DNA from: a virus
Lineage: Duplodnaviria > Caudoviricetes
Direction: 5' to 3' (one strand)
Length of the DNA: 64,000 nt
IMG/VR virus record: IMGVR_UViG_3300037501_000255
Shown piece by piece: positions 662-27,317 of the stretch. Made by a program: the position numbers and the translations under genes. The notes beneath the pieces were generated by a model, which did no database searches, had not been told where the DNA came from, and saw only the letters and a program-made list of their open reading frames with translations. Each line of letters begins with the position of its first letter. The stretch's first letter is position 1.

Positions 662-670
662 TCGGCGATA

Positions 671-2242: not shown

Positions 2243-2306
2243 TGCGGACTCCTGACGGTAGCATCGCGGCTACTCGGTGTTGCCGGAGCCTATCCCGGCA
2301 TGGGGC

Positions 2307-2336: not shown

Positions 2337-2343
2337 ACCATTT

Positions 2344-3173: not shown

Positions 3174-3200
3174 ATGGAGGAGCTTACGCTCCTCTGGGAC

Positions 3201-3401: not shown

Positions 3402-3408
3402 AGATTCC

Positions 3409-4795: not shown

Positions 4796-4797
4796 TT

Positions 4798-4992
4798 CTA
4801 CCTCGGTTCCCAGTCGTTGCAGACTTGCACTTTCCTGCAACGCATGTTGTTATGAGTGCCATGACACTGCATCTCAGTAGAATGTGAGATGCAGCGCATG
4901 TTTGTATGCCACCAGTATGTGCCGCCGAAGATTGCCACTGTGATGGTAATCAGCAGTAGAACCACGCCGGCATTACTCAGTCGTTGCCTCAT
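4798..4992 (-). CDS. Small membrane protein with Cys-rich extracellular part
   Basis: MRQRLSNAGVVLLLITITVAIFGGTYWW TM helix followed by four Cys. Confidence 0.6.
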   Translation of the reverse strand: MRQRLSNAGVVLLLITITVAIFGGTYWWHTNMRCISHSTEMQCHGTHNNMRCRKVQVCNDWEPR

Positions 4993-5186
4993 CCGCCAGT
5001 CGAGCCGCCGGGCGTTCCGGACTTTCGATAACCTCGACGAGGGCGAGGTCGACGCCACCGATGCACTGGTAGCTCGTACCGCCATCGATAAACGTGCGGT
5101 TGGGGCGACAAGTCGTGGCGGTGTCGCGATTCCAGAACATCCAGACACTCCTTGCAGAGGATAATGTTGCGTGGTCTCTCACTCAT
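4973..5186 (-). pseudogene. Small phage Zn-binding protein (CxxC..ESxHRHD..CxC..IDGG family), frameshifted
   Basis: Frame 1 LCKECLDVLESRHRHD joins frame 2 CRPNRTFIDGGTSYQ; the usual FVxCxC segment is missing. Confidence 0.65.
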
Positions 5187-5319
5187 AACGAGGCCTCCGT
5201 GTGGTTTCTTCGGGAAACTCATCCTGTGTAGTACTTGACGAGCTTATCACCGTCAGGAACAGCCAGCGCCTCTTGTGCGATCTCGCTGAGGCTGGTCCGG
5301 CCAGGGTCGGGAATCTCAA

Positions 5320-5551
5320 TCATGCCAACGCCTCCCTCTTTTCTTTGGGAATCATATGTTCGCCCAGAGTCACATCTAGGAGAATGGCACGGGCCAGCGG
5401 GAAGGATGGATTCTTCTCGCAAGCATCAATGGCGCCCGTGCGTTTCAGGTAGGTCACCACCACTGTGGCGCCCATCCAGCGCGAGAGTGTCTGATGTCGA
5501 GTCTGCGCGTCTTTGGCTTCCATTTCAAAGCCCCATTCGGTTGATGAGCAT
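5320..5551 (-). CDS. Hypothetical protein (probable 1-nt homopolymer frameshift near 5525)
   Basis: AGGA RBS + ATG 5551 (MLINRMGL) joins ORF 5320-5523 if CTTTG is read as CTTG. Confidence 0.5.
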
Positions 5552-5557
5552 GTTATA

Positions 5558-5648
5558 TCCTGTTCGTAGGACTTCGGTCACCATCATTGCAGGCGACTGC
5601 GGCTACGCGATGTGGCTGCCGGCCCCATTGCCCAGGGGCCGTTTGGGT
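5558..5648 (-). ncRNA. Structured RNA motif B, copy 1 (pseudoknot + 3 hairpins, riboswitch-like)
   Basis: 91 nt, same length and loops as copy at 7712-7802, compensatory changes in two stems. Confidence 0.7.
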
Positions 5649-5894
5649 TCACTGTGGTGTACCGCACTCCCTCACGATGAGCGCATCACACTCCCTGCCC
5701 GGCTTCTTCTGGAAGCACTGCGTGCGATCCAGGAAGTCGCGAACGCACTGATCGCGCCTCATCCCCTCCACGCGAGTCTGCACCTCCGAGATGCCGCTGT
5801 ATGCGGCCTGTCCGACCTTGCGCGGATTTTGGAAGGCGAGCACGCCGAAAACTCCGATGACGATTCCGATGACGAGAGCAATGAACTTGTCCAT
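5649..5894 (-). CDS. Small membrane protein
   Basis: N-terminal TM helix, four Cys. Confidence 0.7.
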   Translation of the reverse strand: MDKFIALVIGIVIGVFGVLAFQNPRKVGQAAYSGISEVQTRVEGMRRDQCVRDFLDRTQCFQKKPGRECDALIVRECGTPQ

Positions 5895-5983
5895 ATTTCC
5901 TTCTCAGTCTGCCATGATGTCTGCGAAGAGTATCACCACGCCCCAGATGAACGTGGTGGTGGCAAAGAATGCTGCGATGTAAA

Positions 5984-6181
5984 TCATACCGAGTATTGCA
6001 TGCGATCCATGCGGTCGCGTGCCTCCAAGTATTCCAGCGTCACCACCTGAGTGAGCTGGTCGTTGCAGAGGTGGTCGAAATCATCGCCGAGACCCAGGAT
6101 GGAATTGCGGTCCTCGACCGGCGAATCATTCAGCGGGGTACCGTCAGGTTCGTGCATGTCGATGTTGATGAGCTTGTGCAT
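5984..6181 (-). CDS. Hypothetical protein
   Basis: 65 aa acidic ORF with GGAG RBS. Confidence 0.6.
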   Translation of the reverse strand: MHKLINIDMHEPDGTPLNDSPVEDRNSILGLGDDFDHLCNDQLTQVVTLEYLEARDRMDRMQYSV

Positions 6182-6386
6182 GATTCACTCCAGGTTGGTG
6201 GTTTTGGCGCCGTCCACAACGGACAAAGAACAGGGCACCATCTCACGCGCAACTTCTTCTGCGTAGTGTGTTGCTTACGGGGAGGTATGTTTCCGCCAGG
6301 ACTCCACACCATCCATAATGTCTTGCCCTGCTGCACACGCGGATGGGACACTTGCGCTCCTGCAAATCAGAGATCGTCCGTACGCA

Positions 6387-6821
6387 TCACTGCACCTCAC
6401 GAATGAACTTGCTGAGCTGCTCCTGCTCCAGCACACAGCCATTAGGGCTGCGGCTTGCGGAGAGCTGCGCGGCGGTCATCATCACCACACCGAAGTAGAT
6501 GTCACTGTCTACATCTAGGTCGTGGCTGCGCTGGGCCGCAACCTCAGCATGCGCCTTCTCGGCGAACCCATGCCAGTAAGTGTTGCCGTTGGGGTATTGT
6601 GTGCGGATCAGGAAGCATCCGCGCTCATCGGTTTGTGCGATCCTTTGGCTCATTTTCATTGTCCCTCGAAAGCGTTGACGGTCGGCGTAGTGCATCATGC
6701 TGCCGTCATGGCCCAGCACGAACACTACATCTAGAATCTGGTCTGCAGCGATGACCTCTCTCCCATGTTCACTTTTCTTGCGTGGATTTGGAAACGGCAC
6801 GCCGCAGTCGGCCGTGCTCAT
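6387..6821 (-). CDS. Hypothetical protein
   Basis: 144 aa ORF in operon. Confidence 0.6.
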   Translation of the reverse strand: MSTADCGVPFPNPRKKSEHGREVIAADQILDVVFVLGHDGSMMHYADRQRFRGTMKMSQRIAQTDERGCFLIRTQYPNGNTYWHGFAEKAHAEVAAQRSHDLDVDSDIYFGVVMMTAAQLSASRSPNGCVLEQEQLSKFIREVQ

Positions 6822-6961
6822 CCGAAGCTTCCAGCAACTTCCGACAGCAAATGTCCACCCAGGTTTTGTGCGAGAATGCTCGGCACTTCATGAAGGTCTT
6901 GCTTGCCTCCTCGAAATCCCTAAGTGCTTTGTTGAGCCGCTCTTCTGAGCGGGCGAGCGCA

Positions 6962-7264
6962 TCACTCATCATCATCCTCCTCGGGGAACAACTTGTCATC
7001 CTCCTCGGGGAACAACTTGTCCCATTCGGCAGGGGTCGTGCCGGTCATGATAAACTCACGCTCAGGTGGGGCGAGGAACGGAAATGCATCTTGTATGAGT
7101 GCACCGTTTACGTAGGACGAGATGGCCGTACACATCTTGCCGAAAGGATGGTCGAACACCATCTCCTTAGAGACGATCCCTGGGCCCATCAGGCTTCGAC
7201 CTTCGCGAACCACGATAGTGCGATCGGCGCCGTCGTGAAGCAGACGAAAAGTAGCAGGAAACAT
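6962..7264 (-). CDS. Conserved phage protein (LIQDAFPxL..EREFIxTG..WD motif)
   Basis: Start MFPATF after GGAGG; C-terminal KLFPEEDD twice. Confidence 0.75.
   Translation of the reverse strand: MFPATFRLLHDGADRTIVVREGRSLMGPGIVSKEMVFDHPFGKMCTAISSYVNGALIQDAFPFLAPPEREFIMTGTTPAEWDKLFPEEDDKLFPEEDDDE
6973..7021. repeat. 24-bp perfect tandem duplication
   Basis: catcctcctcggggaacaacttgt x2, encodes DKLFPEED x2. Confidence 0.9.
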
Positions 7265-7265
7265 C

Positions 7266-7706
7266 TCAGACCTCCTCGGGAAGTTGCACGGCCGAAGCCA
7301 TGCGCTTGATGCCTTCGAGCGGAACACCGTGCGTGTTGCGACGAGCGTACGTCTCGCACGCCTCGGGTGTGAACTCGCCCACCACCTCGAACACCACGTC
7401 GTACCCCATGGCACGAGCAAGCTTGATGTAGGGCTCGCGGTGCTCGGCACGGATGTTCGTGTTGTCCACGATCACCTGATCGACGCTGTCGGCGAGGGCG
7501 AGCGCGAACTTCTGGAAGTTCAGTGCGTGATTTTGCGTGAGCTTGCCCGGATTGAACCGGTAGACTCCGCCCTCCATGAAAAAGTCGTCCGTGGAACACA
7601 CCACGGTCCTAAGACCGAAATCCTCGCCCGCCTTGACCATCTTGGACACAGCAGTCGACTTGCCGGCGCCAGGAAGGCCGATCATAAGCACAGCAACCTT
7701 CGACAT
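7266..7706 (-). CDS. AAA_33 / polynucleotide-kinase-like P-loop kinase
   Basis: GLPGAGKST, STDDFF, VIVDNTN, RNTHGVP (N4BP2/PNK-type). Confidence 0.88.
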   Translation of the reverse strand: MSKVAVLMIGLPGAGKSTAVSKMVKAGEDFGLRTVVCSTDDFFMEGGVYRFNPGKLTQNHALNFQKFALALADSVDQVIVDNTNIRAEHREPYIKLARAMGYDVVFEVVGEFTPEACETYARRNTHGVPLEGIKRMASAVQLPEEV

Positions 7707-7711
7707 AGGAA

Positions 7712-7802
7712 CCCCGTTCGTGGGACTACGTTCCCCATCATTGCAGGGGAATACGGCTACATGATGTAGCTGCCGGCCCCATTACCCAGGGGCCGTTTGG
7801 GT
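7712..7802 (-). ncRNA. Structured RNA motif B, copy 2
   Basis: ACCCA-AAC-GGCCCC-UGGGU-AAU-GGGGCC pseudoknot, GCUAC/GUAGC, UUCCCC/GGGGAA, UCCC/GGGG hairpins. Confidence 0.7.
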
Positions 7803-8210
7803 TCACTTCTTGAGGATGGCGTCGAGCGGACGAGCGGCGGACCGGGCCTGCACCTCCTCGGCGCGCTGACGACGGACGAGGCTGATGGTCTGAGTCTTGA
7901 CCCAGCCGACGCACGGGGTGTTGAGGGGGAGGCGGATCGTGCGGGACTCCCCCTTGTCCATGGCATCCGGAACGGTGGTCACATCCGCGAAATTCATGTG
8001 CGGAATGACCCGCACGCACGCGATGGCACGGTGCCCGCCGCTGGGGAGCTGGACCACCGGACGGTCCGCCTCCGGGTCGTTGGCGGCGAACAAGACCGAG
8101 CTCAGGGGGCGGGTGAGGGGCTTGCCGCTGGTCTTATTCGCCGCCTCCTTCTGCTGCGTCTTGCTGATCTCGATGTGGCCGATGACGCGAGCGGTGTTGT
8201 TCTGGGACAT
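7803..8210 (-). CDS. Hypothetical protein
   Basis: Start MSQNN after AGGAG RBS. Confidence 0.7.
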   Translation of the reverse strand: MSQNNTARVIGHIEISKTQQKEAANKTSGKPLTRPLSSVLFAANDPEADRPVVQLPSGGHRAIACVRVIPHMNFADVTTVPDAMDKGESRTIRLPLNTPCVGWVKTQTISLVRRQRAEEVQARSAARPLDAILKK

Positions 8211-8250
8211 GTCTCTCTCCTGTATGCGCAAAGACCCTGCGCAAGGTGTT

Positions 8251-8324
8251 CCCGGACTTGGAACCGGGCTCCGGAGACTCTTTCCGGAGGGCCTTACTAA
8301 GAGTTCCCCCCTAGTCCTCGGTCA
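8251..8324 (-). ncRNA. Twister-like ribozyme candidate, copy 1
   Basis: GAG-GA/P1(GGAA loop)/UAA, P3, P4 CCCGG-UUCCAAGU-CCGGG; L4 UC pairs with GA after GAG. Confidence 0.6.
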
Positions 8325-8507
8325 ACGATCCCACGCCTTCCGACCACGCCGCTGGAACTTCCAATTACGCTGTTTTTCGCGGGTTTCGTCATCATATGCA
8401 TCCGCGAGGTTACGGGGGGTGCGCTTGCCACGCACGAACTCCCGAACCTCGGGCGCAGCGTTCTGAACCTTCTCGTTCTGGGACTTAGGACGACGCATCC
8501 AACCCAT
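8322..8507 (-). CDS. Small basic (Arg-rich) protein between the two twister-like RNAs
   Basis: 61 aa, RRPK..VRGKRTPRNLADAYDD, GGGAGA RBS. Confidence 0.7.
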   Translation of the reverse strand: MGWMRRPKSQNEKVQNAAPEVREFVRGKRTPRNLADAYDDETREKQRNWKFQRRGRKAWDR

Positions 8508-8557
8508 TGTCTTCTCCCAAATAAAAGGCCGTAAAATCTTGTTTTTGTTTATTTTTC

Positions 8558-8632
8558 CCGGGACTTGGGACCCGGCCCCTAAGAGTCTCCCAGGGGGGCC
8601 TTACTAGGGGTTTACCCCCTAGCCCTCGGTCA
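8558..8632 (-). ncRNA. Twister-like ribozyme candidate, copy 2
   Basis: GAG-GG/P1/UAA, P3, P4 CCGGG-UCCCAAGU-CCCGG; L4 CC pairs with GG after GAG (covaries with copy 1). Confidence 0.6.
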
Positions 8633-8818
8633 GCGGCGGGCCGGCAGGCCCACACCCAGACGCTCACGACGCCAGAAGAACCGGCGACGGATCGTCTCCT
8701 CGAACACGTCGGGCCGCTGGCCCTCGGGGACCGAGTAGGTCACACCCTCCACCGAGATCATGCCCTCGGACAGCGGCTTACAATCCTCGGTCCGACGGCG
8801 GATGAAGGTTGCGGTCAT
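8630..8818 (-). CDS. Hypothetical protein (first ORF of left arm)
   Basis: 62 aa ORF with AGGT RBS; stop overlaps twister-like copy 2. Confidence 0.6.
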   Translation of the reverse strand: MTATFIRRRTEDCKPLSEGMISVEGVTYSVPEGQRPDVFEETIRRRFFWRRERLGVGLPARR

Positions 8819-8829
8819 GTTGCACCTAT

Positions 8830-9555
8830 CTGCGTTCCCCCAGGGTTATCCCAGGGTCCTACGGCTTTAGACGTAGCTTAGGCCCATTAGTGCAATGCAC
8901 CGGCGTATCTCCTACTAGTCAGTCCCTCACCCTAAGGCATCCCCTAGGGTCAGTAGACACACCCCTACCGTGGACCGCTTCGGGCAGTCAAGCTAGTGTC
9001 ACACCCTTTCGGGCTAGCTTCCTTTTGTAGTGGCGTTTTCCTTTAGGTGCCAAAGGATGCGCGGTCACTTGTCTAGGCAGACAGACCGGCTCACACGCTA
9101 TGGCATCGGAGACTTGCCGGTGTCCCGATTAGCTTACTGTTTCGCTTTAGCCTTTACGTTTGGGAATAGATGGGGCTAGCTGGCAATTGGGTTAGGGAAG
9201 GAACCTAACCGCGTTGCTGCTTGCCCGGTTCGGCTAGGTAGCGTGGCCCGTATTGCCTCGCTTCCCTAACCCATCCTAACCCCTTTCGGTTAGGCGCTAG
9301 CTAGGGATCTCTCCCGTAAGCTAGTCGGGGCACCTTATTACGCCAGCCCTTTCGGACCGACTACGCACACGCCGCTTGCGCGGGATGCGTGGGGGATTCC
9401 GGGCTATCTAGACCCGCTCCTACCCTACTATACTTCCCTTTATGACCCGACCAGGTTAGTGAAACCGGATCTGATCCTATCGGGCTTGGGCCGTCCCGCT
9501 ACCGCGTTCCGCCCGTAGCGGTGTCACCCGCTAGCACCTTGTCATCGGCGCACCC
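8830..9555 (-). ncRNA. Large highly structured non-coding RNA (GOLLD/ROOL size class, unassigned)
   Basis: No long ORF; more than 12 hairpins including GNRA loops (GUCC-GAAA-GGGC, CCUAACC-GAAA-GG..GUUAGG, CCGC-GCAA-GCGG, GGGA-GAGA-UCCC, CCC-GAAA-GGG) and long-range GGGUUAGGGAAG/CUUCCCUAACCC. Confidence 0.65.
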
Positions 9556-9606
9556 TTTATTATGATTCAATCGGGTTAGTGAAAAGAGATCTAGATCTAG
9601 ATCTAG
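9436..9606 (-). promoter_or_regulatory. Duplicated promoter-like motif TTTCACTAACC-N8-TCATAA plus (GATCTA)3 palindromic array
   Basis: Two copies about 120 bp apart, each preceded by GATC-A/TAGATC; AGATCTAGATCTAGATCT at 9587-9604. Confidence 0.45.
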
Positions 9607-10228
9607 CGTACCTTATCGCACACATTCCTACATGTAGGAGGGGGTAGGGGGGTGTAGGTCCCACCGAGAATGCCTCCAAACTACCCAGTTACACTTTTTT
9701 CCACTCACAAACTCTATAGTATATCACTATCTTTTCTATAGTCTAGCGCTATCTAGGTACTGTGGGAGTCATCCGTAATTAAATCACACATATTTCCAAT
9801 AGCTTTCCCCTACCTTATACGGTTGCTCTCTTATATTAGCTACGTGGGCGGGTGGCTCTATGTGAAAAATACGGTTGGTCTAGGGATATGGGGGGGGGGG
9901 TGATGGTAGCTGTTGCGGGAGACCTGAGCCTATGCGTGAACGGTGGTATTGGGGCGGTTTTTGTCGTGATTTTAATAGGGCGGGAGATTCTGCTTTTCAG
10001 CTATATGATGATGTTATAATGGTGGGTTTGAATTCTTCCGGGGATTTGGTACGTGCCGGAGATTGTTATCCTATGGTGGGTATTTTTGTGTGTCATGGTA
10101 GTACTTTTTGTCAGGAATATTATCATGTTCAGCAGTGTGCAGCTGGATTCTATACGTAACACTTGGATGAGAGTGGGAGTATTATTTGGATTGAAGGCTA
10201 GGCTGGCCTAGATTTTGGTGGGAGGGGT

Positions 10229-15161: not shown

Positions 15162-15770
15162 ATGTATAATGTTATTGGCGATATAGCTGGACAGTTCAAG
15201 ACTCTACAGGCTCTAATAGCCAAAATGCCGCAGGGCACTGTGTTGAGCGTAGGCGATATGATTGATCGCGGCCCTCGAAGCAATGAGGTTGTGGAATTTT
15301 TTATGAATGGAGGTGGGGAGGCGCTTCGTGGCAATCACGAAGATCTCTGCCTGGAATTCTATAGGCCTACTGGCAGGTATCACCCTACAGATTGGCACTG
15401 GAATGGTGGAGATGCCACCGAACGCGCATGGGGCGGACGAGTACCAGACGTCGCGCTGGACTGGATGGCATCGCGTCCCTTATACAAGGAGATTGAGGCC
15501 GACGGCAAACGCTTCTTCGTAAGCCATGCATTCGTACGCTGGGATCGCGGTGGGCTGACCGCACGCGAGGAAACGTTGATGTGGAATCGCTCTATACCCG
15601 TAGCAAATCCTGCGTACGATTTACAGATCTGCGGTCACAATTCACAATTCGGATTGCAGTACTGGGGAAATCCCGCCTATGCAGTTTGCATAGATACTAG
15701 CCGCAATAACGTACTGACCGGTATTCGCCTACCAAGTGGGAAAATCTATGAACAAGCGTATATCGATTAA
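15162..15770 (+). CDS. Calcineurin-like metallophosphoesterase (PrpA/NinI-type)
   Basis: GDIAG (H to A variant of GDxHG), GDMIDRGP, RGNHE, SHA, CGHN. Confidence 0.88.
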   Translation: MYNVIGDIAGQFKTLQALIAKMPQGTVLSVGDMIDRGPRSNEVVEFFMNGGGEALRGNHEDLCLEFYRPTGRYHPTDWHWNGGDATERAWGGRVPDVALDWMASRPLYKEIEADGKRFFVSHAFVRWDRGGLTAREETLMWNRSIPVANPAYDLQICGHNSQFGLQYWGNPAYAVCIDTSRNNVLTGIRLPSGKIYEQAYID

Positions 15771-15774
15771 ACCA

Positions 15775-15951
15775 ATGCGTCCAGTGAATTTACCTGACCG
15801 TGACCAGGTATTTGAAATTATGAAGGCGCGCTCTCGTCAGATAAAGGGTATCACAAATCCATGTAGCGAAATTGCACTGGGCGAAGTTCACGAGTGCTAT
15901 CTTGACCAAGAAGAGATTGTTAACTCTAATGACTTTGAATGGGGAGAATGA
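15775..15951 (+). CDS. Mini-protein with acidic-aromatic C-terminal tag (NDFEWGE)
   Basis: Short ORF coupled to the phosphatase. Confidence 0.6.
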   Translation: MRPVNLPDRDQVFEIMKARSRQIKGITNPCSEIALGEVHECYLDQEEIVNSNDFEWGE

Positions 15952-16169
15952 TGTTTTATGCGCGGCTGGTATATGCGTGAAATCGTAAGTCTAGGTGTTG
16001 TCAATTCCGTGAGGGAAGATAATCTCATTTAAGTACGACCCAGACCATATTTCCATACATCCAATACCTAAGAATTGGTGGACGCTGGAGGAGCTTAATG
16101 ACGACAGAGATTCGGATCTCGAGTGGCTCGACAAGCCAAACGTTGGAGCTGATACGTAATTTGAGCGAA

Positions 16170-16394
16170 ATGACTCGCGCAATAGCAGATACCCATTCGC
16201 TTAATCCCGATATGATACAACAGCTGGGTGAATCAATGGCGTCGCCCATACGGCGAAATCTAGACTATACAGTCGTTGCCAGCAGACTCTTTGCGGTAGA
16301 CCCCCTGCCTGATGGTGCAAATCCGCTATTCTTCGAAGCAATTGAGGAAGTTGAGGAGATTTTTGATGGTGCCGACGACTTCACCAATGAGTAG
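16170..16394 (+). CDS. Major-capsid N-terminal-segment-like mini-protein with acidic tag
   Basis: LGESMASPIRRNLDYTVVASRLFAVDPLPDGANP resembles MCP segment LAQAMANPIRRNLDYQGIARRALVVDPLPQGALP (recalled); ends EEIFDGADDFTNE. Confidence 0.7.
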   Translation: MTRAIADTHSLNPDMIQQLGESMASPIRRNLDYTVVASRLFAVDPLPDGANPLFFEAIEEVEEIFDGADDFTNE

Positions 16395-16686
16395 AATACC
16401 AGAGTTTTGGCTATATTGCAATGATGCCGACTATGTCGATATTAAGTGGAAGGATCCCGCCTTCCCTTATGATGTGGGGTGGTACCTGCTGGATTGCATA
16501 GGGCGTCCCAGATTTGAAGCAAAGTTAATATCCCAATACACCCGAGATATCTATATTCTATTGTCCGATGTATGCCAGCGAGGATTATTGTGGCGCCTCA
16601 GAAATGCATGGGTGTGCCAGCCGTATATCTGGGATGAACTTGGCTATCCAGATTTATCTGATGGAGATTTTGTATTCAATGAGTAG
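16387..16686 (+). CDS. Hypothetical mini-protein (MSRIPEF start, acidic-aromatic end)
   Basis: ATGA-coupled; ends DLSDGDFVFNE. Confidence 0.7.
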   Translation: MSRIPEFWLYCNDADYVDIKWKDPAFPYDVGWYLLDCIGRPRFEAKLISQYTRDIYILLSDVCQRGLLWRLRNAWVCQPYIWDELGYPDLSDGDFVFNE

Positions 16687-17089
16687 AATTCCTGATTTTC
16701 ACGTGCGACTCGATGCGAATAGAATCGGTGTAGAGATCGACTTTCGCGATAATTTTCTAAATGATGGAAGTAGTAAGCGCACTCTGCTGGAACACATATG
16801 CGATAAGTGCGAGTGGTCTTTTATTGGTCGCCCAACGCACGGCATAGTGCAATTCGCAGAGGCGGTTATTACTGAGGAGTTAAATTATCTAGTGGCTATC
16901 GGTGCACTATGCCGCAGAAGTGATGGTTTTTGGGTATACAATTACAAAACCACAGAACGCAGAGAGCGCAAATATCGAGAGCACAATCCATCTAGTGATT
17001 GGTACAAACCTATACGAAATAGGCATGTAGATCCTGAGGAGGTTGTTGAGACCTTTGCCGGGGCTGAGGACTTTGAAGATGCGGCCTAA
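16679..17089 (+). CDS. Hypothetical protein (MSRIPDF start, acidic tag)
   Basis: Ends ETFAGAEDFEDAA. Confidence 0.7.
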   Translation: MSRIPDFHVRLDANRIGVEIDFRDNFLNDGSSKRTLLEHICDKCEWSFIGRPTHGIVQFAEAVITEELNYLVAIGALCRRSDGFWVYNYKTTERRERKYREHNPSSDWYKPIRNRHVDPEEVVETFAGAEDFEDAA

Positions 17090-17240
17090 GCTTAAGTTAG
17101 TAATCAATGGCTTCTCTACTGGCGTATTCCTCACGCTATTTTTTGTTACACTCGCACTAGGCATGAATCCCGCGCTCTTCTTTATTGCCGCTATGTTGAC
17201 TGGCGGACTTGTAGTGCTGGGATTAAACCATGATATCTGA
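17079..17240 (+). CDS. Small two-TM membrane protein
   Basis: Two hydrophobic helices. Confidence 0.6.
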   Translation: MRPKLKLVINGFSTGVFLTLFFVTLALGMNPALFFIAAMLTGGLVVLGLNHDI

Positions 17241-17492
17241 CTTATCAGAGCTCAGGCTAATACAGGTCGGTGGGGCGTATTGGAATCGTGGACTGTGCGC
17301 GTCGTTACAAATGAAGATGAGCTGCGGTTCGTAAATTCTGTGAGCAGTACGCGCATTCTCGTGGTCACGCCGTAGATGCGGAGTATCGAGGGATACATGG
17401 ATTCAACATATTGTATACCATAGACTTTGCATCAGTACATAGGACTAACTCAGATGGAGCTGTGAGCCGGGCTGCTATGAGGTACGTGCTCG

Positions 17493-18293
17493 ATGAAACA
17501 GGCAATGGGAGCATTAATGTTGGGAGCAATGATTGGCGATATTATTGGGTCGCCCTACGAATTCAACAATATACACACTACTGAGTTTCCTCTCTTTAGT
17601 GACAAGTGTAAGACTACCGACGACACCGTTTGCACGGCGGCTGTAGCATGGAAGCTTGTGCATGGCGGCGCCTATGAAAGCCGTCTTGTAGAGCTGGGGC
17701 AACGCTACTACGACAAAGGTTGGGGCAAGAAATTCGCGGATTGGATTAACGATGAGCAACGCAAGCCTTATTCAAGTTGGGGTAATGGAGCAGCAATGCG
17801 CGTTAGTCCGATCGGTTGGTGGCACTCGGACTTGCAGTCTGTACTTACAGAGGCCAAGGAGAGTTGTTTGTGCTCGCATAACCATGAAGATAGTTATACT
17901 GCTGCGCAGGCTGTGGCAGGTAGTATCTTCAAATTGCGGACCGGTTCCTCTAAGGATGAGGTCCGCACATGGGTAGCTGAGCAGTTCGGCTATGATCTAA
18001 CCCGTAAACTCGATGATATCCGTCCAACATTCAAATTTGAAGTATCATGCGCGAAGAGCGTGCCTGAAGCTATTATCGCATTTCTGGAGGGAAACTCATT
18101 TGAGGAGGTGGCTCGGTTGGCAGTCAGCCTTGGTGGAGACTCTGACACAATATGCGCCATAGCCTGCTCTTTGGCCGAGGCGTACTTTGAAGTGCCTACT
18201 ACAATACTGGTAGATGCATCACGTTTTATAGAACCAGAAATTATACACATATGGACGGAGTATACCGAAGCAGTTATACGGAGGCAGGCATGA
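17493..18293 (+). CDS. ADP-ribosylglycohydrolase (DraG/ARH family)
   Basis: GAMIGDIIG, TTDDT, GNGAAMRVSP, SHNH, GGDSDTICAIA. Confidence 0.93.
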   Translation: MKQAMGALMLGAMIGDIIGSPYEFNNIHTTEFPLFSDKCKTTDDTVCTAAVAWKLVHGGAYESRLVELGQRYYDKGWGKKFADWINDEQRKPYSSWGNGAAMRVSPIGWWHSDLQSVLTEAKESCLCSHNHEDSYTAAQAVAGSIFKLRTGSSKDEVRTWVAEQFGYDLTRKLDDIRPTFKFEVSCAKSVPEAIIAFLEGNSFEEVARLAVSLGGDSDTICAIACSLAEAYFEVPTTILVDASRFIEPEIIHIWTEYTEAVIRRQA

Positions 18294-18895
18294 GTGGCCT
18301 AGCAATTGTACTGTCGGGTCCCAGCGGCTGTGGTAAAACAACGCTAAGTCGTCTTATACTTGACAGTAGCGACAATATGCGTGAGAGCGTATCTTATACT
18401 ACCCGCCCCCCTCGACGCGGAGAAGAGGACGGCGTGCATTATCACTTCATAGATCAAGCGCAATTCAATAGGATGTCGGATGACGGCGAGTTTATTGAAT
18501 CAGCAGAAGTCCATGGATTTAGCTACGGCACGGGCGCAACCTCAGTTAAAACTCAATTGCAACACGGGCATGACTTATTGTTCATATTGGATATTGTCGG
18601 AGGTATGCAGATGAAGAAGTCTGTTGATGCTGTGACAATATTCTTGGTGCCACCGCATATCAACTCATTAGAGGAGCGCCTAATAAGACGCGGAACCGAC
18701 AGTGCTGATATAATCCAGCGTAGAATGAGCACTGCGCGGGATGAGATCCGACGTGGCGTAGCATCATATGACTACATAATACACAATAACAAACTAGAGA
18801 CTGCGCTTAATGATATTCTTGCTGTAATACGCACTGAGCATCTCAAACGTGCTCGCAGAGAAGATATCATTAAAAGCTTAATGGAGCATATATGA
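18290..18895 (+). CDS. gmk: Guanylate kinase
   Basis: SGPSGCGKTT, SVSYTTRPPRRGEEDGVHYHF, EVHGFSYGT, YDYIIHN. Confidence 0.95.
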   Translation: MSGLAIVLSGPSGCGKTTLSRLILDSSDNMRESVSYTTRPPRRGEEDGVHYHFIDQAQFNRMSDDGEFIESAEVHGFSYGTGATSVKTQLQHGHDLLFILDIVGGMQMKKSVDAVTIFLVPPHINSLEERLIRRGTDSADIIQRRMSTARDEIRRGVASYDYIIHNNKLETALNDILAVIRTEHLKRARREDIIKSLMEHI

Positions 18896-19203
18896 AGACG
18901 GACTCTTTGGCTGACTATACGATTAGAAATTGGAGCGACTCGCTGGATAGTTTCTGTTTTGATCACAATATATCCAACTCTTATTACTACAAAGAGCGTT
19001 CCGAGTATTTTTCAGGGTATCTAGATCATAATAAGATAGCCGGGGTGCTCAACGATCATCATGATAATATGGAGAAGCGGGTTAGGGCTCCTCTAGCAAT
19101 CTGCGATGTAGCCTTTGAGCGCATAGCCCATATGGATAGAGCTATCGAGAGTCTGCGGGTAGAGATTGCGAAACGTGATGATGAGATGTCCACTATACGA
19201 TAG
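18892..19203 (+). CDS. Hypothetical coiled-coil protein (last gene of + arm)
   Basis: Coupled to gmk; frame continues past TAG to 19248. Confidence 0.6.
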   Translation: MKTDSLADYTIRNWSDSLDSFCFDHNISNSYYYKERSEYFSGYLDHNKIAGVLNDHHDNMEKRVRAPLAICDVAFERIAHMDRAIESLRVEIAKRDDEMSTIR

Positions 19204-19274
19204 GAGATCCGCGAACTCGATGAATTGCGTGCATTGTCTGATTTAAAATAGACGCGGGTTGGCAGCGGCCGGCA

Positions 19275-19769
19275 TCAAGAGGGAAGGTTCGCCTTCCCTC
19301 TTCTTATTGCCTCAAAGGCTTCGGCTAGCGATAGAACTCCGGTGCGGTTCATCCACAGATAAATACCGTGCTCATAACACTTGCGACATTCTGATGGTGT
19401 AGCTGCTGGAATGTCTAAAACGCGGAGCGGATGCTGAGACTGGCGCAGAGAAACGGGAGAAAGATCGTAGCGGCTGCCTGCGCATGTGTACCCCATATCA
19501 TTTACTACCACCCTATACTCTTCATCGGGTTCACTTAAACTCTCTAAAGCATATATTGGGACATTACTGGCAAAAGCTAAGATTTTATCAGCCACACGTA
19601 AGCAGTACGGAATATTGGAATTAGGGCTAAGACTGGCTACAGTGATATCTCTTAGGGCAGAAAAGGAGTGTAGCGTCTCTCCTGGAAATTCAGCATTAAA
19701 CCCCATTCCTAAATCAAAATACCGCTTGAAGTAGTGATCTGCCAAAATGCGTCTAGTTCCAGGTATCAT
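19275..19769 (-). CDS. Hypothetical protein
   Basis: 164 aa ORF. Confidence 0.65.
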   Translation of the reverse strand: MIPGTRRILADHYFKRYFDLGMGFNAEFPGETLHSFSALRDITVASLSPNSNIPYCLRVADKILAFASNVPIYALESLSEPDEEYRVVVNDMGYTCAGSRYDLSPVSLRQSQHPLRVLDIPAATPSECRKCYEHGIYLWMNRTGVLSLAEAFEAIRRGKANLPS

Positions 19770-20076
19770 ACCATCCCCCGCCTACTAATGCCTGAAATTC
19801 ATCAGTATTACCTATATTATATACACCCTGACCCGCTCTACGTAGCTTAGTAGCTAATTCCTGCTGCATGTGGCCGGGGCCGAGAAGCAGATGGATATCT
19901 CCCGGCAATTTATTGTAGAGATCATCCATTACAAATTCTGCGTTGAAGATAAGACTACTATCATATACATATGGAGAGCCGTCCGCAATGTATGCTGGTA
20001 TGAAGTTGCGACCTTCGGGTATCTTCGGGCGACCAAAGACCCTGCAGCTAGCGACATCAATGAGGATGTAAACCAT
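19753..20076 (-). CDS. Hypothetical protein
   Basis: 107 aa ORF. Confidence 0.65.
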   Translation of the reverse strand: MVYILIDVASCRVFGRPKIPEGRNFIPAYIADGSPYVYDSSLIFNAEFVMDDLYNKLPGDIHLLLGPGHMQQELATKLRRAGQGVYNIGNTDEFQALVGGGWYDTWN

Positions 20077-20078
20077 GC

Positions 20079-20597
20079 TTAGATTCCAAGATATTGTTCC
20101 CTTACTCTATCTAAAAAATCATAATGCGTTTTTGGCCATCTCGGTCCATTGTTGAGGTGTTTTGGATACATATCTCCGGCTATGGCTCCATAGGCAACGT
20201 GTATCAATTCGTGCCCCAGAGAGGTACAGCTGGCATCTTTACAGTCTGGAGGTACGTAGACGTACATTCTAATCTTGCCATGCTCAGGAGGATACGTAAG
20301 TCCAAATAGTGCCGATGTACCGTCCGGGGTCCGAAAGATATGTGGTTGCCAGAAGATTGTCAATTTATTTAGAGCCAGGCGCAATGCCTGGCTATCATGC
20401 GGGAAGATCGGCTCCTCATTCCACATGTACTCGAATGTTAGTATGTATTGCTCAAAATCCATGCTAGGCGGCGGGGCGCCACAATATGAGATATCGTATG
20501 AACTCAAATGCTGTGTTGGGGTGCAATTGCGATATTCCGGAATATGAGCGACGCAGCTACATAAGAAAACCACTAGGAAAAGGAGTATGTTCCTCAT
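20079..20597 (-). CDS. Lipoprotein, putative zinc metallopeptidase
   Basis: Lipobox LCSC; LGHELIH (HExxH). Confidence 0.65.
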   Translation of the reverse strand: MRNILLFLVVFLCSCVAHIPEYRNCTPTQHLSSYDISYCGAPPPSMDFEQYILTFEYMWNEEPIFPHDSQALRLALNKLTIFWQPHIFRTPDGTSALFGLTYPPEHGKIRMYVYVPPDCKDASCTSLGHELIHVAYGAIAGDMYPKHLNNGPRWPKTHYDFLDRVREQYLGI

Positions 20598-20629
20598 TCC
20601 TAGTGGTATATTTTTATTGAACGATGGTC

Positions 20630-20917
20630 TTATTCCCAGACGGCTGGGTCATACTTGTCAATTTCTATGAAGTCCTTATATGTATACCCATCAGTAATCT
20701 GAGTATCTGAATTGAATTTCTCTAGTACAGAGGGGTGTATCATCCCGTAGGCGCTGCCGTCAGTGTATACACTCACAAATAGAACTTCTTGTAAGTCCTT
20801 AGTAACATTTTCTGATGCTGTAAACAATATACTTGGATCAAATTGACAATAGAATACTCTTTCGCCTGCCCTTAGAGGTTCACGCGCTTTTATTAATACC
20901 TGTTCAGGATGGTTCAT
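20630..20917 (-). CDS. Hypothetical protein
   Basis: 95 aa ORF coupled to map. Confidence 0.6.
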   Translation of the reverse strand: MNHPEQVLIKAREPLRAGERVFYCQFDPSILFTASENVTKDLQEVLFVSVYTDGSAYGMIHPSVLEKFNSDTQITDGYTYKDFIEIDKYDPAVWE

Positions 20918-21665
20918 GTGTTAATATCTCCGCTTTATTATTTCCTACCAATATAGTATGTTCGGCCTGAGCTGTTAGGCTGCCAGACACCAGAATGGCC
21001 TCCCAGGCATTTCTGAATGTTATCTTAGAATCGCCTTTACATAGAATGGGCTCTATTGTAAATATCATTCCAGCCTTAAGTCGCACTCCGGTATTGGGTA
21101 CACCATAATGTGGTACGTATGGCTGCGTATGAAATTTCCTGCCTATACCATGTCCAACAAATTCCTTAATTATAGAATATCCTTTTGAATTAGCATGCTG
21201 CTCAATGGCCGCCCCAAGAGAGCCGAGGTATTCGCCTTCAACTGCATGACTTATGCCCACATCCAAGCACTCCTCAGTCACTGCAATTAGCTCCAACGCT
21301 TCTGCGCTGCACTCGCCTACAGGAAAGGTGCGCGATGTATCTCCATGATAACCATTGAAAATGGGGGTAACATCTATATTGATAATATCTCCCTCGCGTA
21401 AAACTACTGCGTCCGATGGTATGCCATGACAGACAACCTCGTTAATACTGGTGCAAATATGAGCGGGGAACGGAGCGTATCCCCCTTGGGTATACCCAAG
21501 GGGTGCTGATGTTGCCAGCGCCTCGCTGGTCCATTCAGCTGCCAGGCGATCTAATTCGCCTGTAGAAATGCCCGGACGTACACATTTGCCCAGATACGCG
21601 AGGAGTCTGGCAGCCAAGCGTCCAGCTCGGCGCATACCTCTAATATCCTCTACTGTAGCTAGCAT
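20904..21665 (-). CDS. map: Methionine aminopeptidase type I
   Basis: CTSINEVVCHGIP, GDIINIDVT, GYHGDTSRT, FVGHGIG, FTIEP, AQAEHT. Confidence 0.95.
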   Translation of the reverse strand: MLATVEDIRGMRRAGRLAARLLAYLGKCVRPGISTGELDRLAAEWTSEALATSAPLGYTQGGYAPFPAHICTSINEVVCHGIPSDAVVLREGDIINIDVTPIFNGYHGDTSRTFPVGECSAEALELIAVTEECLDVGISHAVEGEYLGSLGAAIEQHANSKGYSIIKEFVGHGIGRKFHTQPYVPHYGVPNTGVRLKAGMIFTIEPILCKGDSKITFRNAWEAILVSGSLTAQAEHTILVGNNKAEILTHEPS

Positions 21666-22001
21666 TCATACCTTTCTTCTGGGACGCAGCATTTCGCTCA
21701 TAGACATCTCGTCTTTAGTTATGAACTTCGACGCCAATTCGCGCATACGCTTCCTGCTGCGCTCTTCTAGATGGTCAATCAACTGCCCTACACCTTTGTC
21801 TAAGCTACGCAGCTGTAAAGTGTCCCGTAATGTATGCAGACCGATATACCTCATGCTGTTACTCATCTCGTCTATAAGAGCATCTGGAGATGCCTTGGGA
21901 ATATTCAATAGTGAGACAACTCGCGCCTCGTCTGAAAATACCCTATCATATAGGTTGTCCAATACTTCTCTTGCTAATTCAAGCTTTTCCTCGTGAGTCA
22001 T
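21666..22001 (-). CDS. Hypothetical protein
   Basis: 111 aa, GGAGG RBS. Confidence 0.7.
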   Translation of the reverse strand: MTHEEKLELAREVLDNLYDRVFSDEARVVSLLNIPKASPDALIDEMSNSMRYIGLHTLRDTLQLRSLDKGVGQLIDHLEERSRKRMRELASKFITKDEMSMSEMLRPRRKV

Positions 22002-22025
22002 TACTACCTCCGTATAGATAGTAAT

Positions 22026-22535
22026 TTATGCATTGCCCCATGCACGATCAATCTCGTCGGCGATTTTGTTAAGCTCAGCTTTTAGCGCATCCCTTTTCTT
22101 TTGTAGATCTAGGATCTTCTTCTGCTTCTTAATTTCTGCCAGCATTCGCTTCTTTTCTTCGGTAGGCAGGCTTTCCCATCGCGTATGTTCCTCGAGCGCG
22201 CGCTCGTACTCCTCATATCGCTTTAGGTAAGCCTCTTCTGATTCTGTAAAGACATGCTGTTCTATTGCAATTGAGTTATTCTGTGAGGCCTTGCGCACAA
22301 CGACTCGCTCCATATCTAGACCCAGGGCCTTGGCCTCCGCCAGCAATTTTTCAATGAAAAGCTTTAGCGGCACACCCGCCTGCTCCTTGCGCACATAACG
22401 TCCATTGGACCACTCCAATTGTGGATCTGGACCTAGGGCAGCTGCAAGCAGCTTTTTAGCAAAAGCTTTCATCTTAAACTTGCGCTGCGGCTCAATCGGG
22501 CGCGGAGTTGATGGTGGGAGAATAATATTTTCCAT
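22026..22535 (-). CDS. Hypothetical coiled-coil protein
   Basis: Charged helical C-terminus. Confidence 0.7.
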   Translation of the reverse strand: MENIILPPSTPRPIEPQRKFKMKAFAKKLLAAALGPDPQLEWSNGRYVRKEQAGVPLKLFIEKLLAEAKALGLDMERVVVRKASQNNSIAIEQHVFTESEEAYLKRYEEYERALEEHTRWESLPTEEKKRMLAEIKKQKKILDLQKKRDALKAELNKIADEIDRAWGNA

Positions 22536-23090
22536 AGTTTTCCTCTAAGTATTTCTTTATTACAAATGCATGACCTGCTCGGTCATTAGGATCATCGAAA
22601 ACTTCATCTAGCGTTTGAGTAGTAATACTGCTGTCAAAATCAAATAACCATACATCGGTAATGGTCAGAATATCAGCTAGAGTTTGTAACTCACGGGTGC
22701 AGTAGCGATCTAACTTCTGCTCGTATATCGGTATATATATCTTCTTGCGAGCATCGACATATGATAATTTACCTAGACCATTTATATATGAGAATTCTGG
22801 GCGGGCGCCTTTACCCATTGGATACCGATGCGGTTTAAAATCAGCCAATCCAGCATCTCGCCAGGCCAGCCAGGCTTTGGAATTGTCGACATGTTCCGCG
22901 TAGCACTTGGTAAATTGCCAGAAATTCTCGACATTATGCGCGGTCAAATCATACAACCCAAGCGGCCCATGATTCATGAAGGGGAAAAAGCCTTGCCAAA
23001 GTCTGTTGATGTTGATGTTGTGTTGATTTTGAATGCGTTGGGCGGGATAGCTGCGCGGTCTTTTGGACCCCAAATATGTATGGTATGCAT
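22492..23090 (-). CDS. DUF6939-like phage protein (1-nt frameshift near 22981)
   Basis: NVENFWQFTK, HRYPMGKGARP, LSYVDARKKIYIPIY, LFDFD; true N-terminus MHTIHIWGPKD in the adjacent frame. Confidence 0.7.
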
Positions 23091-23395
23091 CATGTATCCC
23101 CGGCAGTAGCCTTCGCTACTGCCTCTACAATCATCTCAAAAGCCTGCTTATTTCTTCCGCGCGCATTTGGAGGATACATATCAAAATCCCCCACATCTTG
23201 CAGCACTGCCTTGCAAGCGGCCAGCAAGTCCGGAGCCGCAACGATAAGGTTGATATTTGCCCTAAGATTCTGGTTGCCATCTTCGATATTGAGCAGTCGT
23301 AAGCCATGATGATTGCTGTCGCGACCAGAATACAATCCCAGACCTTTGCCGTGCGCCTCAACGCTCCACGGTCCCGGCGTGTGTGTAAAGCTCAT
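23090..23395 (-). CDS. HTPGPW-family phage protein
   Basis: HTPGPW...ANINLIVAAPDLLAAC. Confidence 0.8.
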   Translation of the reverse strand: MSFTHTPGPWSVEAHGKGLGLYSGRDSNHHGLRLLNIEDGNQNLRANINLIVAAPDLLAACKAVLQDVGDFDMYPPNARGRNKQAFEMIVEAVAKATAGDT

Positions 23396-23408
23396 AATTC
23401 CTCCCGCG

Positions 23409-23964
23409 CTACGCGCATATTGCTCTAAAGGTTAGATTGATGCGTGGCTCGGTTATCCTTTTACGACGCGGAAGAGCATGTTTCCAATACTCCTGAGTAT
23501 GCCCACGCATGATTAATAGGCTGCCATGTCTTAGCTGTATCTTTAGTTCATTCGGCTTATACTTGTGTCTCAAGATGAAGTCCCGGGCAATACCTAGGCT
23601 GAGGCTTGCTATGATAGGATTTCGTCCCAATTCCCGCTCATCGTCTGAGTGCCATCCGACAGTGTCATTGCCATCCCGATACTTATTCAGTAACACCGAA
23701 TTGAAAGCAGCCTCGGACACTTCCTCTATTTTACTTTTCAATTGAAGCAAAGTTGGCGTCCACGGAAGCGGCAACAGTGGTATGCCTGACCAAGTATATG
23801 CACATCCTGGGTCGCCGTACCACTGTTGTAAGCGTGGCAATGGATGCGTTTTGTTGTAAATGGTGATATAATCCTGGCGCCATGCAAAAGCAGCATCAGC
23901 CTCAGCTGCTAAAGGAAGTTCTCGATTAGTTCAATGCCCCATCTATAATTGAGAGTTGTGACAT
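23409..23964 (-). CDS. alkB: AlkB/ALKBH2-3-like 2OG-Fe(II) dioxygenase (5' part frameshifted)
   Basis: PRLQQWYGD, FNSVLLNKYRDGNDTVGWHSDDE (HxD), HALPR, RINLTFR; N-terminus in shifted frames. Confidence 0.88.
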
Positions 23965-23981
23965 ATAGTTAAGCTTCGATA

Positions 23982-24360
23982 TCAATCATCCCAATCAAAA
24001 TCTGCTGCAGCTGGAAGTTCCTGTATCATTTCAATAATTGCTTTAATTAAAAGTATCTTCGGAAACTTCTAATTCCCTATTTTCAACTTTGACATAGCAA
24101 TGTATCATGCCGCTGATAGTCTCTAATAATCCGCCATATGATGATGATAGGAGGGGAATGGTGTCTCGCTCCTGTCGTACTGATTTTACAATTGCTGGAT
24201 TGTTTGCGATGCACTCAATCAATTGAGACTCAAGCTCAGCCCAATCGCATATAGATCTCCAGTCGGCCTGAGATGTGAGGGGTTTATCTGGGTTGATAGA
24301 ATGTTTCTCTAGGATGTTGCGCAGCTCTTCACTCGTCCGCCCATTCAAAGTCGTCGACAT
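23982..24360 (-). CDS. Hypothetical protein with acidic tag (needs -1 T near 24048)
   Basis: ORF 24043-24366 continues as LIKAIIEMIQELPAAADFDWDD* in the next frame. Confidence 0.55.
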
Positions 24361-24700
24361 ATTCAAGTTCCTCCCGCTCTACTTGTTCAATTTCCAGTTT
24401 AGCACCAGGGGCAGATGTGCCTATGCCAATAAAATCCACTCCAATCTCTGGTCGTGCAAGCATCTGACCAACGAAATGCGGTTCGCTAACCGCAAATACT
24501 ATTCCTGGCGGAATAATGCGTGAGACAATAAGGTCTGCACCGAAAACCGAAGCGAATTGTCCAGACCTTACCAGCTCGGCTGCTACCACAGCGCCCGCTT
24601 GAACGCCATCATGAATCTCCGGCAAAGGTTGCCCATTCAGCGTCTGCGTGTCTGCCGGTACGTTTACAAATGACCATTCAGTAATATCATTCAAAGTCAA
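24329..24700 (-). CDS. Major-capsid C-terminal-segment-like mini-protein with acidic tag
   Basis: ELVRSGQFASVFGADLIVSRIIPPGIVFAVSEPHFVGQM resembles EILQTGLYGHIFGADIIVSKVVPAGTAFACADPEFVGVM (recalled); ends EYVDDFEWADE. Confidence 0.7.
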   Translation of the reverse strand: MTLNDITEWSFVNVPADTQTLNGQPLPEIHDGVQAGAVVAAELVRSGQFASVFGADLIVSRIIPPGIVFAVSEPHFVGQMLARPEIGVDFIGIGTSAPGAKLEIEQVEREELEYVDDFEWADE

Positions 24701-24905
24701 AATACTCTGCGCCAGCGAAGATTTCCTCAGCCTCTTCTCGCGTCAGACCTAGATTGGCCAGCTCGGCATCCGAGATATCTGCGGCTGCACTATATCTATC
24801 CATGATATTGAATATTCGTTTGCGAATATCACATATTCTTATTGTTGGCTCAACAACAATATAAAATTCTGGAATAAGTACTCTTTTACCTTTTATAAAA
24901 TTCAT
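24687..24905 (-). CDS. Major-capsid middle-segment-like mini-protein with acidic tag
   Basis: IKGKRVLIPEFYIVVEPTIRICDIRKRIFNIMDR resembles VFGDRVTVPEFEVVSNPTVRIAEVKRRRFNVIDR (recalled); ends EEIFAGAEYFDFE. Confidence 0.72.
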   Translation of the reverse strand: MNFIKGKRVLIPEFYIVVEPTIRICDIRKRIFNIMDRYSAAADISDAELANLGLTREEAEEIFAGAEYFDFE

Positions 24906-27053: not shown

Positions 27054-27317
27054 TCACTTATCCCAATTAAAATCCCTGCTACACTCAAGTGCGGCAAGGC
27101 GCTCTTCGAGATCTTCCAGTTTTTGCGCCAACTCCTTGACTGAAATCTGAGCTCCATCAGGCATATTTAGCACAATATGGCAATTATCTCCGCTATAGGT
27201 AATGCCTGAATCTATAGTGAATTTATTATTAGTATAATATAGCGAAGAGTATCCGCACGGGAGCAGGGAGCCGCTCTGTGTGTCAATGCCTATAACTAAT
27301 TCTTTATCACTAATCAT
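27054..27317 (-). CDS. Mini-protein with coiled coil and acidic-aromatic tag
   Basis: KELAQKLEDLEERLAALE (tail-chaperone-like coil), ends RDFNWDK. Confidence 0.65.
   Translation of the reverse strand: MISDKELVIGIDTQSGSLLPCGYSSLYYTNNKFTIDSGITYSGDNCHIVLNMPDGAQISVKELAQKLEDLEERLAALECSRDFNWDK

Follow-up and report, generated by a model that had tools for sequence, protein, structure and literature searches.

Pieces of a major capsid protein carried as separate, tagged small genes in a phage of the Caudoviricetes

Why would a phage carry parts of a major capsid protein (MCP) as separate small genes, each closed by a similar acidic-aromatic tail? The question is raised by three open reading frames (ORFs) in a 64,000-nucleotide stretch of phage DNA (IMG/VR record IMGVR_UViG_3300037501_000255; Duplodnaviria, Caudoviricetes), which was analysed over its full length and is referred to here as the window. 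A first-pass annotation, made from the letters of this stretch, had reported three intact ORFs with such tails, whose bodies correspond to three different, non-overlapping segments of an MCP, and both observations are borne out by the present analysis. It is very probable that the three pieces are real genes under selection, derived from an MCP and tagged, and the arrangement is a so far undescribed use of capsid sequence. As to their role, a part in the conflict between phage and host is the answer that we tentatively place first.

Three capsid-protein blocks in three small genes

The piece that carries the most N-terminal block (N-piece) lies on the forward strand at 16098-16394 and encodes 98 amino acids, in which the N-arm block of the MCP (positions 65-112 of a hidden Markov model (HMM) of the MCP family) is followed by the tail EEIFDGADDFTNE. 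The middle piece (24687-24905, reverse strand, 72 amino acids) holds the return strand of the E-loop, the P-domain strands and the first two thirds of the spine helix (HMM positions 124-174), and then the tail EEAEEIFAGAEYFDFE. The C-piece (24329-24700, reverse strand, 123 amino acids, TTG start) runs from an A-domain helix and strands to a DPEFVG-like block (HMM positions 229-298), after which come a degenerate IGIG strand and the tail EYVDDFEWADE. The reading frames of all three ORFs are open throughout. The first-pass annotation had placed the N-piece at 16170-16394; its stop stands, and its start is more likely at 16098, because GGAGGAG lies 4 nucleotides upstream of that position and the orthologues also open with MTT or MTN. 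The C-piece can start only at a TTG codon (24700 or 24694), and it overlaps the stop of the middle ORF by 14 nucleotides in the +1 frame. A programmed frameshift joining the middle and C-pieces was considered and rejected: there is no slippery site, and in the related phage L006 the C-piece has an ATG of its own inside GAATGGTAA. The separation of the middle piece from the C-piece is old, as this ATG indicates.

Several independent comparisons agree on the origin of the bodies. The best PHROG for all three pieces is 2522, 'major head protein', with matches at profile positions 41-93, 119-155 and 232-282 for the N-, middle and C-pieces, respectively (E 4e-5, 0.11 and 5e-5). BLASTP against gp27 of Bacillus phage G (282 residues), which NC_023719 annotates as the major head protein, aligns the pieces, in the same order, to residues 26-61, 83-136 and 197-247 (E 4e-12, 5e-10 and 2e-9). 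Likewise, hhalign of the piece families against an MCP alignment of 12 members, made up of phage G, an uncultured 485-kb phage and metagenomic MCPs, gives E values of 8.8e-17, 3.3e-13 and 9.2e-16. The matched blocks are colinear and non-overlapping across the three pieces, and a search of the six frames of the window with the MCP HMM finds the three pieces, a remnant at 15952-16029 and nothing else that is MCP-like. Real MCPs of this phage-G-type family are common in the environment, where 72 metagenome loci were found, most of them with full-length MCPs. An AlphaFold model of a member of the family, itself of low confidence (predicted local distance difference test (pLDDT) 58), matches the capsid proteins of HK97, D3 and T5 as well as encapsulins at E 1e-7 to 1e-8, and by this model the parent family is of the HK97 fold. 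Placed on the secondary structure of the model, the N-piece corresponds to the N-arm helices and an extended segment.

Each ORF holds a single block, and the blocks jointly cover about 40% of the fold. The missing 60% or so includes the A-domain helices and the E-loop, and HMM positions 1-64, 113-123, 175-228 (the A-domain helices) and 299-334 have no intact counterpart. Even within the core blocks, identity between pieces and MCPs is 33-53%, and several residues that are invariant in the MCP family (alignments A3/A11) have been lost: Ile replaces the second Arg of the RRF motif in the middle piece of the window, Leu replaces the Pro after VGxM in the C-piece, and the Arg and the Asp of PIRRNLDY are altered in the N-piece of L006. 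No head module surrounds the genes. Their neighbours encode Metallophos, ADP-ribosylglycohydrolase, guanylate kinase, M24 peptidase, SNase, thioredoxin and PurA proteins, and the pieces are located in operons of nucleotide-metabolism and accessory genes. Given the large missing share of the fold, the loss of invariant residues and the dispersal of the genes, we infer that the pieces are not shell subunits and do not build capsids.

A tail shared with unrelated small proteins

The tail had been reported for the three MCP pieces. It is indeed present on all three; it is not specific to them, as at least four other small ORFs carry it. Of the 387 ORFs that encode 45 amino acids or more, 7 have a motif of the form DF.[WF] or [FY].GA[DE].F within their final 11 residues, against 0.25 expected (P ~1e-8), the motif having been defined after the data were seen and the expectation being taken from its rate elsewhere in the ORFs. 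All seven lie between positions 15.7 and 27.3 kb of the window, in two gene clusters, and four of them are without detectable MCP similarity. The codons of the tail vary from gene to gene, and the sole DNA repeat is an 8-nucleotide stop/start junction, ATGAGTAG; therefore, the likeness of the tails is at the protein level. For the same reasons, the tail was rejected as a by-product of a downstream Shine-Dalgarno sequence or of a DNA repeat. A derivation of the FxGAxDF tail from the end of the MCP spine helix (..NVFAALDFAGD..) is also unsupported, no MCP HMM score being above shuffled controls, and mimicry of the tail of a PhuZ-like tubulin was discarded, as that tubulin ends basic. As in a terminal docking tag, one terminal motif is borne by unrelated proteins of a genome, is kept better than the body and varies between lineages.

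The tagged genes that surround the N-piece form a short forward-strand array. It begins with a 67-amino-acid protein (15748-15951) that ends in NSNDFEWGE, whose body is not detectably MCP-like and whose orthologue in L005, the other relative of the window, ends in DFEWDD. Between this ORF and the N-piece lies a decayed fourth piece (15952-16159), in which MRGWYMREIVSLGVVN.. corresponds to the C-terminal strand of the MCP. Its MCP-like stretch runs for ~24-26 codons (15952-16029) before a stop, and a degenerate acidic-aromatic end (..DSDLEWLD..) runs on in another frame. The L005 counterpart is intact: it encodes 62 amino acids (MRGWVVNEIIGIGLVN...DFDWQ) and matches MCP residues 314-332 (E 4e-8). 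The window, in other words, contains three intact MCP pieces and one dead one. Downstream of the N-piece, a 99-amino-acid protein (16387-16686, forward strand) starts with MSRIPEF and ends in GDFVFNE, its start overlapping the N-piece stop in ATGAGTAG, and a 136-amino-acid protein (16679-17089, forward strand) starts with MSRIPDF, ends in ETFAGAEDFEDAA and is joined to the preceding gene by the same junction. A further tagged protein of 87 amino acids is encoded on the reverse strand at 27054-27317; it ends in SRDFNWDK and its L006 orthologue in DKEFKW. An origin from the MCP is unsupported for the MSRIPEF protein, which aligns to only 11 columns of the 'vPxFEI' strand of the MCP (hhalign E 0.022, probability 2%), and for the MSRIPDF and 67-amino-acid proteins, for which nothing was found. 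A look-up of the 136-amino-acid tagged protein in the ESM Atlas gave no lead.

The tag family may be wider than the strict motif that was counted. Further small proteins of the region, encoded at 19753-20076 and 20630-20917 (reverse strand) in the window and at 4485-4760 (forward strand) in L006, have Trp-containing acidic tips (..WYDTWN, ..DPAVWE and ..NTWNWE), and such tips are kept in orthologues. Elsewhere in the window, a DnaB-like replicative helicase (49504-50958, reverse strand) has an acidic tail with DDF (..EQLDDFIGVEHVSSENDGD), reminiscent of the T7 gp4 tail.

Conservation in relatives and recurrence in distant lineages

From about 10 kb on, the window has 45% G+C and jumbo-phage gene content, including a PhuZ-like tubulin, DnaB-like and other helicases, ribonucleotide reductase, PhoH, ThyA, dTMP kinase and RNase HII. 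Near 10 kb, G+C falls from ~0.57 to 0.45-0.47 (1-10000 vs 10001-64000) and the GC skew flips sign; a tRNA-Leu lies at 3089-3174. The sequencing run listed for this DNA is a freshwater metagenome. Identical DNA (100%) was found on the partial contigs Logan L001 and JGI L003, and a 367,953-bp contig in the protein collection carries the same proteins as the window. An IMG/VR search returned no close relative for the N-piece, the C-piece or the 90%-conserved neighbour orf150, isolated phages gave neither nucleotide matches nor matches to the C-piece, and word-indexed protein searches found known copies only. A HMMER search of 1.84 billion representative proteins with the N-piece as query gave 34 hits. 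The window lineage consists of three phages in the databases, namely the window, L005 and L006. An Rfam scan of the window found one tRNA and no other family, so that no intron RNA lies between the coding pieces, and a promoter and terminator scan showed no enrichment over shuffled sequence.

The contigs of L005 and L006 are syntenic with the window. In L005, a Metallophos gene is followed by a 66-amino-acid gene (..DFEWDD), the 62-amino-acid gene for the MCP C-terminal strand (..DFDWQ) and the N-piece with its tail; in L006, the Metallophos gene is followed by the N-piece with its tail, and on the other arm SNase is followed by the middle piece (9807-10016, ..EEAEEYFAGAEDFEW) and the C-piece. 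Two of the 34 N-piece hits are orthologues that align to the very end, tail included: P0006 (TFEGADDFCDD) and P0011 (SFDGAEDFSDG). The expectation that body and tail are kept together in relatives is thus confirmed for the N-piece, in L005 and L006, and for the middle piece, in L006, and fails for the C-piece, which in L006 is fused and has no such tail. There, the C-piece and the homologue of the window's next gene form one ORF of 176 amino acids (9283-9813, reverse strand) without the DFEW tail, whereas in the window (24043-24700, reverse strand) the same two proteins are two ORFs whose 32-nucleotide overlap encodes the tail, the second being a 105-amino-acid protein (24043-24360, reverse strand) that overlaps the C-piece tail in another frame. 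Here, a gene fission or fusion has taken place exactly at a tag. The MCP C-strand piece, dead in the window, is missing from L006.

At synonymous sites, the window and L006 have reached saturation (pS 0.7-0.9), and dN/dS values are rough for this reason. For the pieces, nonsynonymous differences (pN 0.36-0.43) stay below saturated synonymous ones (pS 0.70-0.74), and the neutral evolution (dN/dS ~1) that would have spoken against the first-pass annotation was looked for and not seen. The pieces share 35-52% identity with those of L006, compared with 70-90% for neighbouring enzymes; they diverge between relatives at about the rate of other small accessory ORFs, with their frames open and their tail kept. 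Neutral sequence would not stay open at this distance. Window and L006 alike have the three ORFs in intact form, and L005 has an intact N-piece, so that the claim of separate genes rather than decay stands for them; it does not extend to the further piece at 15952-16159, which alone behaves as a pseudogene. The tails are conserved beyond their bodies: the three N-piece tails share F, G, A, D and F without exception, and identical tail residues number 11 of 15 in the middle piece and 10 of 14 in the 136-amino-acid protein (71-73%), against 46-54% for the whole proteins. That related phages keep the arrangement therefore indicates a selected use of capsid sequence. In the same region, gene content varies between the DUF6939 gene and the C-piece region: the window encodes a 2OG-Fe(II) oxygenase there (23409-23840, reverse strand), and L006 a CTP_transf_like nucleotidyltransferase (8777-9208, reverse strand). 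A 172-amino-acid protein conserved in L006 (20079-20597, reverse strand) has a lipoprotein-like signal (..FLCSCVAH) and an HExxH motif (LGHELIHV), and may be a secreted or membrane metallopeptidase.

The same MCP blocks recur in more distant lineages with other tags; what stays constant is thus the blocks, and what varies is the tag. In four proteins (P0009, P0010, P0023 and P0038), the middle and N-arm blocks are fused in permuted order. An AlphaFold model of the fused protein, built from an alignment of 4 sequences, reaches a pLDDT of 52, a value that suits a binding peptide better than a folded domain, and the pieces probably do not fold alone. Three contigs (L080, L084 and L086) carry tandem small genes that each open with ..I-T-x-x-D-F-G-L-P-E.., in an array composed of tag plus MCP C-terminal strand, tag plus middle and N-arm blocks, and tag plus an unrelated body. 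This DFGLPE tag is mostly N-terminal and is C-terminal once, in L086 (..SDFGLEEYE). Directly upstream of the array lies a gene of the Peptidase_C39 or papain (C1) type (L080 3273-3689, L084 3-503, L086 5231-5641), whose product is a candidate reader or processor of the tag. The L086 contig also carries, at 31-1665, a Thy1 (ThyX) gene split by an intein. In L085, the MCP C-terminal strand and the N-arm follow one another with a different N-terminal tag (RRLxLL..D.P.P.WY), and the order of C-strand piece before N-arm piece is common to the window lineage, L084, L085 and L086. The N-arm block is found as well in the middle of proteins of 240-355 amino acids (L082 4082-5047; P0007, P0017, P0018, P0029, P0032 and P0034) with acidic ends such as ..LLEDDE and ..FLPDE; the L082 protein, of 321 amino acids, adjoins AcrVA2-like, Ro60-type vWA and thymidine kinase genes.

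Borders similar to those of the pieces are seen within the MCP family itself. Many of its database proteins end after the spine-helix motif QEDxxIFxALD and some after YDKD, and further recurrent stop points fall inside the VPEFE strand and after RRFNxIDR. Truncated MCP calls include L009, L063, L068 and L071 as well as P0008, P0014, P0016, P0024, P0026-P0028, P0030 and P0036. The MCP homology of the middle piece ends at the QEDxxIFxALD stop, and that of the N-piece a few residues before the YDKD stop. These recurrent stops may be sites of intron, intein or endonuclease insertion, or in part contig ends.

Possible roles and known systems

What, then, could free-standing and tagged capsid blocks be for? 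The first-pass annotation had proposed a decoy for sensors, a poison of a competitor's assembly and targeting through the tail, which are plausible readings and no more. A role as baits in the conflict between phage and host seems the most likely, and is put forward tentatively, at well short of even confidence. It is ranked first because the genes sit in an accessory context and evolve fast, because pieces are gained, lost and fused, because the blocks retained are the most conserved ones of the MCP, and because peptidase and AcrVA2-like genes lie nearby in other lineages. Each piece would be a linear mimic of a conserved MCP block and would bind whatever recognises that block, while the tail would serve as a docking tag for a single partner common to all. 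Targets of the pieces would be host receptors of the Lit/Gol, CapRel, Avs7 or Dsr1 kind, which sense conserved MCP segments and would be occupied or diverted in this way; host receptors sensing the MCP are documented (PMC13581612). Through the tag, the captured target may be brought to a shared factor, for which the C39/papain-like neighbours in other lineages suggest a peptidase as a candidate. In a more specific version, which we regard as rather unlikely, the pieces would be immune baits made from the phage's own MCP, and the lineage-specific terminal tag would pass the receptor, once captured, to a phage factor (e.g., the C39/papain-like peptidase encoded next to the array) for inactivation. 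This would amount to a counter-defence of the adaptor type, in which targeted degradation relies on the very epitope by which the phage is recognised. Several points weigh against the bait role. A free MCP segment could trigger MCP sensors instead of blocking them. No C39/papain-like peptidase was found near the array in the window lineage, the 33-53% identity to MCPs in the core blocks is odd for a faithful decoy, and the low-confidence fold may reflect only the four-sequence alignment from which it was modelled.

A close rival to the bait role, possible in our view though somewhat doubtful, lies in capsid assembly or encapsidation: the tag would be a capsid-targeting peptide that loads small proteins into the procapsid, and the MCP-derived bodies would bind the MCP or the scaffold to time, cap or seed assembly, or would ride along as internal proteins. 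The tandem arrays of unrelated small proteins with a terminal tag, variable as they are, resemble T4 internal-protein loci, the presence of the tag at either terminus is what is expected of a docking peptide, and the Foldseek neighbours of the MCP model include HK97 Prohead I with protease and an encapsulin with targeting peptide. Moreover, what every lineage retains are N-arm and P-domain elements, and in other HK97-fold shells such elements form a luminal docking surface. However, the genes lie far from any head module, amid nucleotide-metabolism genes, no similar tail stood out on proteins beside the real MCP genes of the family, and assembly factors do not usually evolve this fast or become lost or fused between close relatives. 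Another use for the most conserved blocks of a very common environmental MCP family, in an array with arms-race features, would be interference between phages, in which early dominant-negative peptides poison the capsid assembly of co-infecting phages or satellites with the same MCP family, the phage's own MCP being resistant. This is an unlikely explanation, and one that leaves the sharing of the tag by non-MCP proteins unaccounted for.

Two further readings would deny the pieces a new function. Were they relics, a duplicated MCP gene split by mobile elements would be drifting to loss, and the tail would be an accident of junction sequence; MCP gene calls do commonly stop where the middle piece ends and near where the N-piece ends, one piece of the window is truly broken, and the ATGAGTAG stop/start junction is repeated. 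Yet the ORFs are open in two to three lineages at saturated synonymous sites with pN well below pS, the tails are kept better than the bodies, independent lineages carry the same blocks with different tags, and Rfam shows no intron in the window. The relic reading is therefore largely refuted for the three ORFs and, overall, very improbable. Scarcely credible is an MCP in pieces, which would reassemble non-covalently into a real shell protein as enzymes do whose genes were split by homing endonucleases. Phages do have genes in pieces, the split nrdA of Aeh1 being an example, and the blocks are colinear parts of one fold, but some 60% of this fold, with A-domain helices (HMM positions 175-228) and E-loop, is missing, the pieces no longer have several residues that are invariant in the family, and their genes are spread over both strands at a distance of 8 kb.

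The capsid protein is sensed by several bacterial immune receptors, and its interfaces control head assembly. As baits, the pieces would represent a new principle of counter-defence; as assembly or encapsidation factors, they would reveal a novel means of controlling or loading HK97-fold shells. In both cases, they would provide ready-made peptide ligands for MCP-binding factors, together with portable docking tags for which a receptor can be sought.

The first-pass annotation knew of no described system of this kind, and a full-text literature search likewise found no described phage system of tagged capsid-protein pieces; to our knowledge, free-standing, tagged and conserved capsid-protein pieces are without precedent. 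Partial likenesses can nevertheless be drawn. The internal proteins of T4, with their capsid-targeting sequence (CTS), also combine a short terminal peptide on unrelated small proteins, variable tandem arrays away from the main head genes and fast-evolving bodies. Unlike the tags described here, which are C-terminal in the window and found at either terminus elsewhere, the CTS stands at the N-terminus, where the prohead protease cleaves after LxE; none of the window's tags is an N-terminal peptide with such a cleavage site, N-terminal ..DFGLPE.. tags occur in other lineages only, and packaging is putative in the present case. We know of no internal protein whose body is made of MCP sequence. 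The C-terminal tail of the HK97 maturation protease and the cargo-loading peptides of encapsulins are similar in that they are short terminal peptides by which cargo docks on a shell protein of the HK97 fold, but their sequences are unrelated, the carriers here themselves contain shell-protein sequence, and docking is putative. An acidic stretch with aromatics at the extreme C-terminus, serving as a shared docking peptide, is likewise known from T7 gp2.5, T7 gp4 and bacterial SSB (DDDIPF), where the critical last residue is aromatic. The present carriers, in contrast, are small proteins and not replication proteins, their tails end in E, D, K or A, usually with an acidic last residue, and the motif is DFxW or FxGAxDF.

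Other parallels concern the bodies. MCP segments act as ligands of immunity in the T4 gp23 Gol peptide recognised by Lit and in the CapRel, Avs7 and Dsr1 systems (PMC13581612), where a short or conserved part of the MCP suffices for recognition by the host; there, the ligand sits within the genuine MCP and sets off defence, whereas the blocks described here are free-standing and encoded by the phage itself. Genes split by homing endonucleases, such as nrdA-a and nrdA-b of Aeh1, also turn one ancestral gene into separate polypeptides, with breaks near mobile-element sites of the family, but the pieces of the window are incomplete, dispersed, tagged and diverged, and do not seem to reconstitute their parent. 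Finally, Ccm of phage-inducible chromosomal islands (PICI), CpmB of the Staphylococcus aureus pathogenicity islands (SaPI) and Sid of P4 interfere with the assembly of another element by mimicking or binding its capsid protein; these are whole domains or dedicated scaffolds that come from satellites, whereas the pieces described here are tagged single blocks encoded by a phage.

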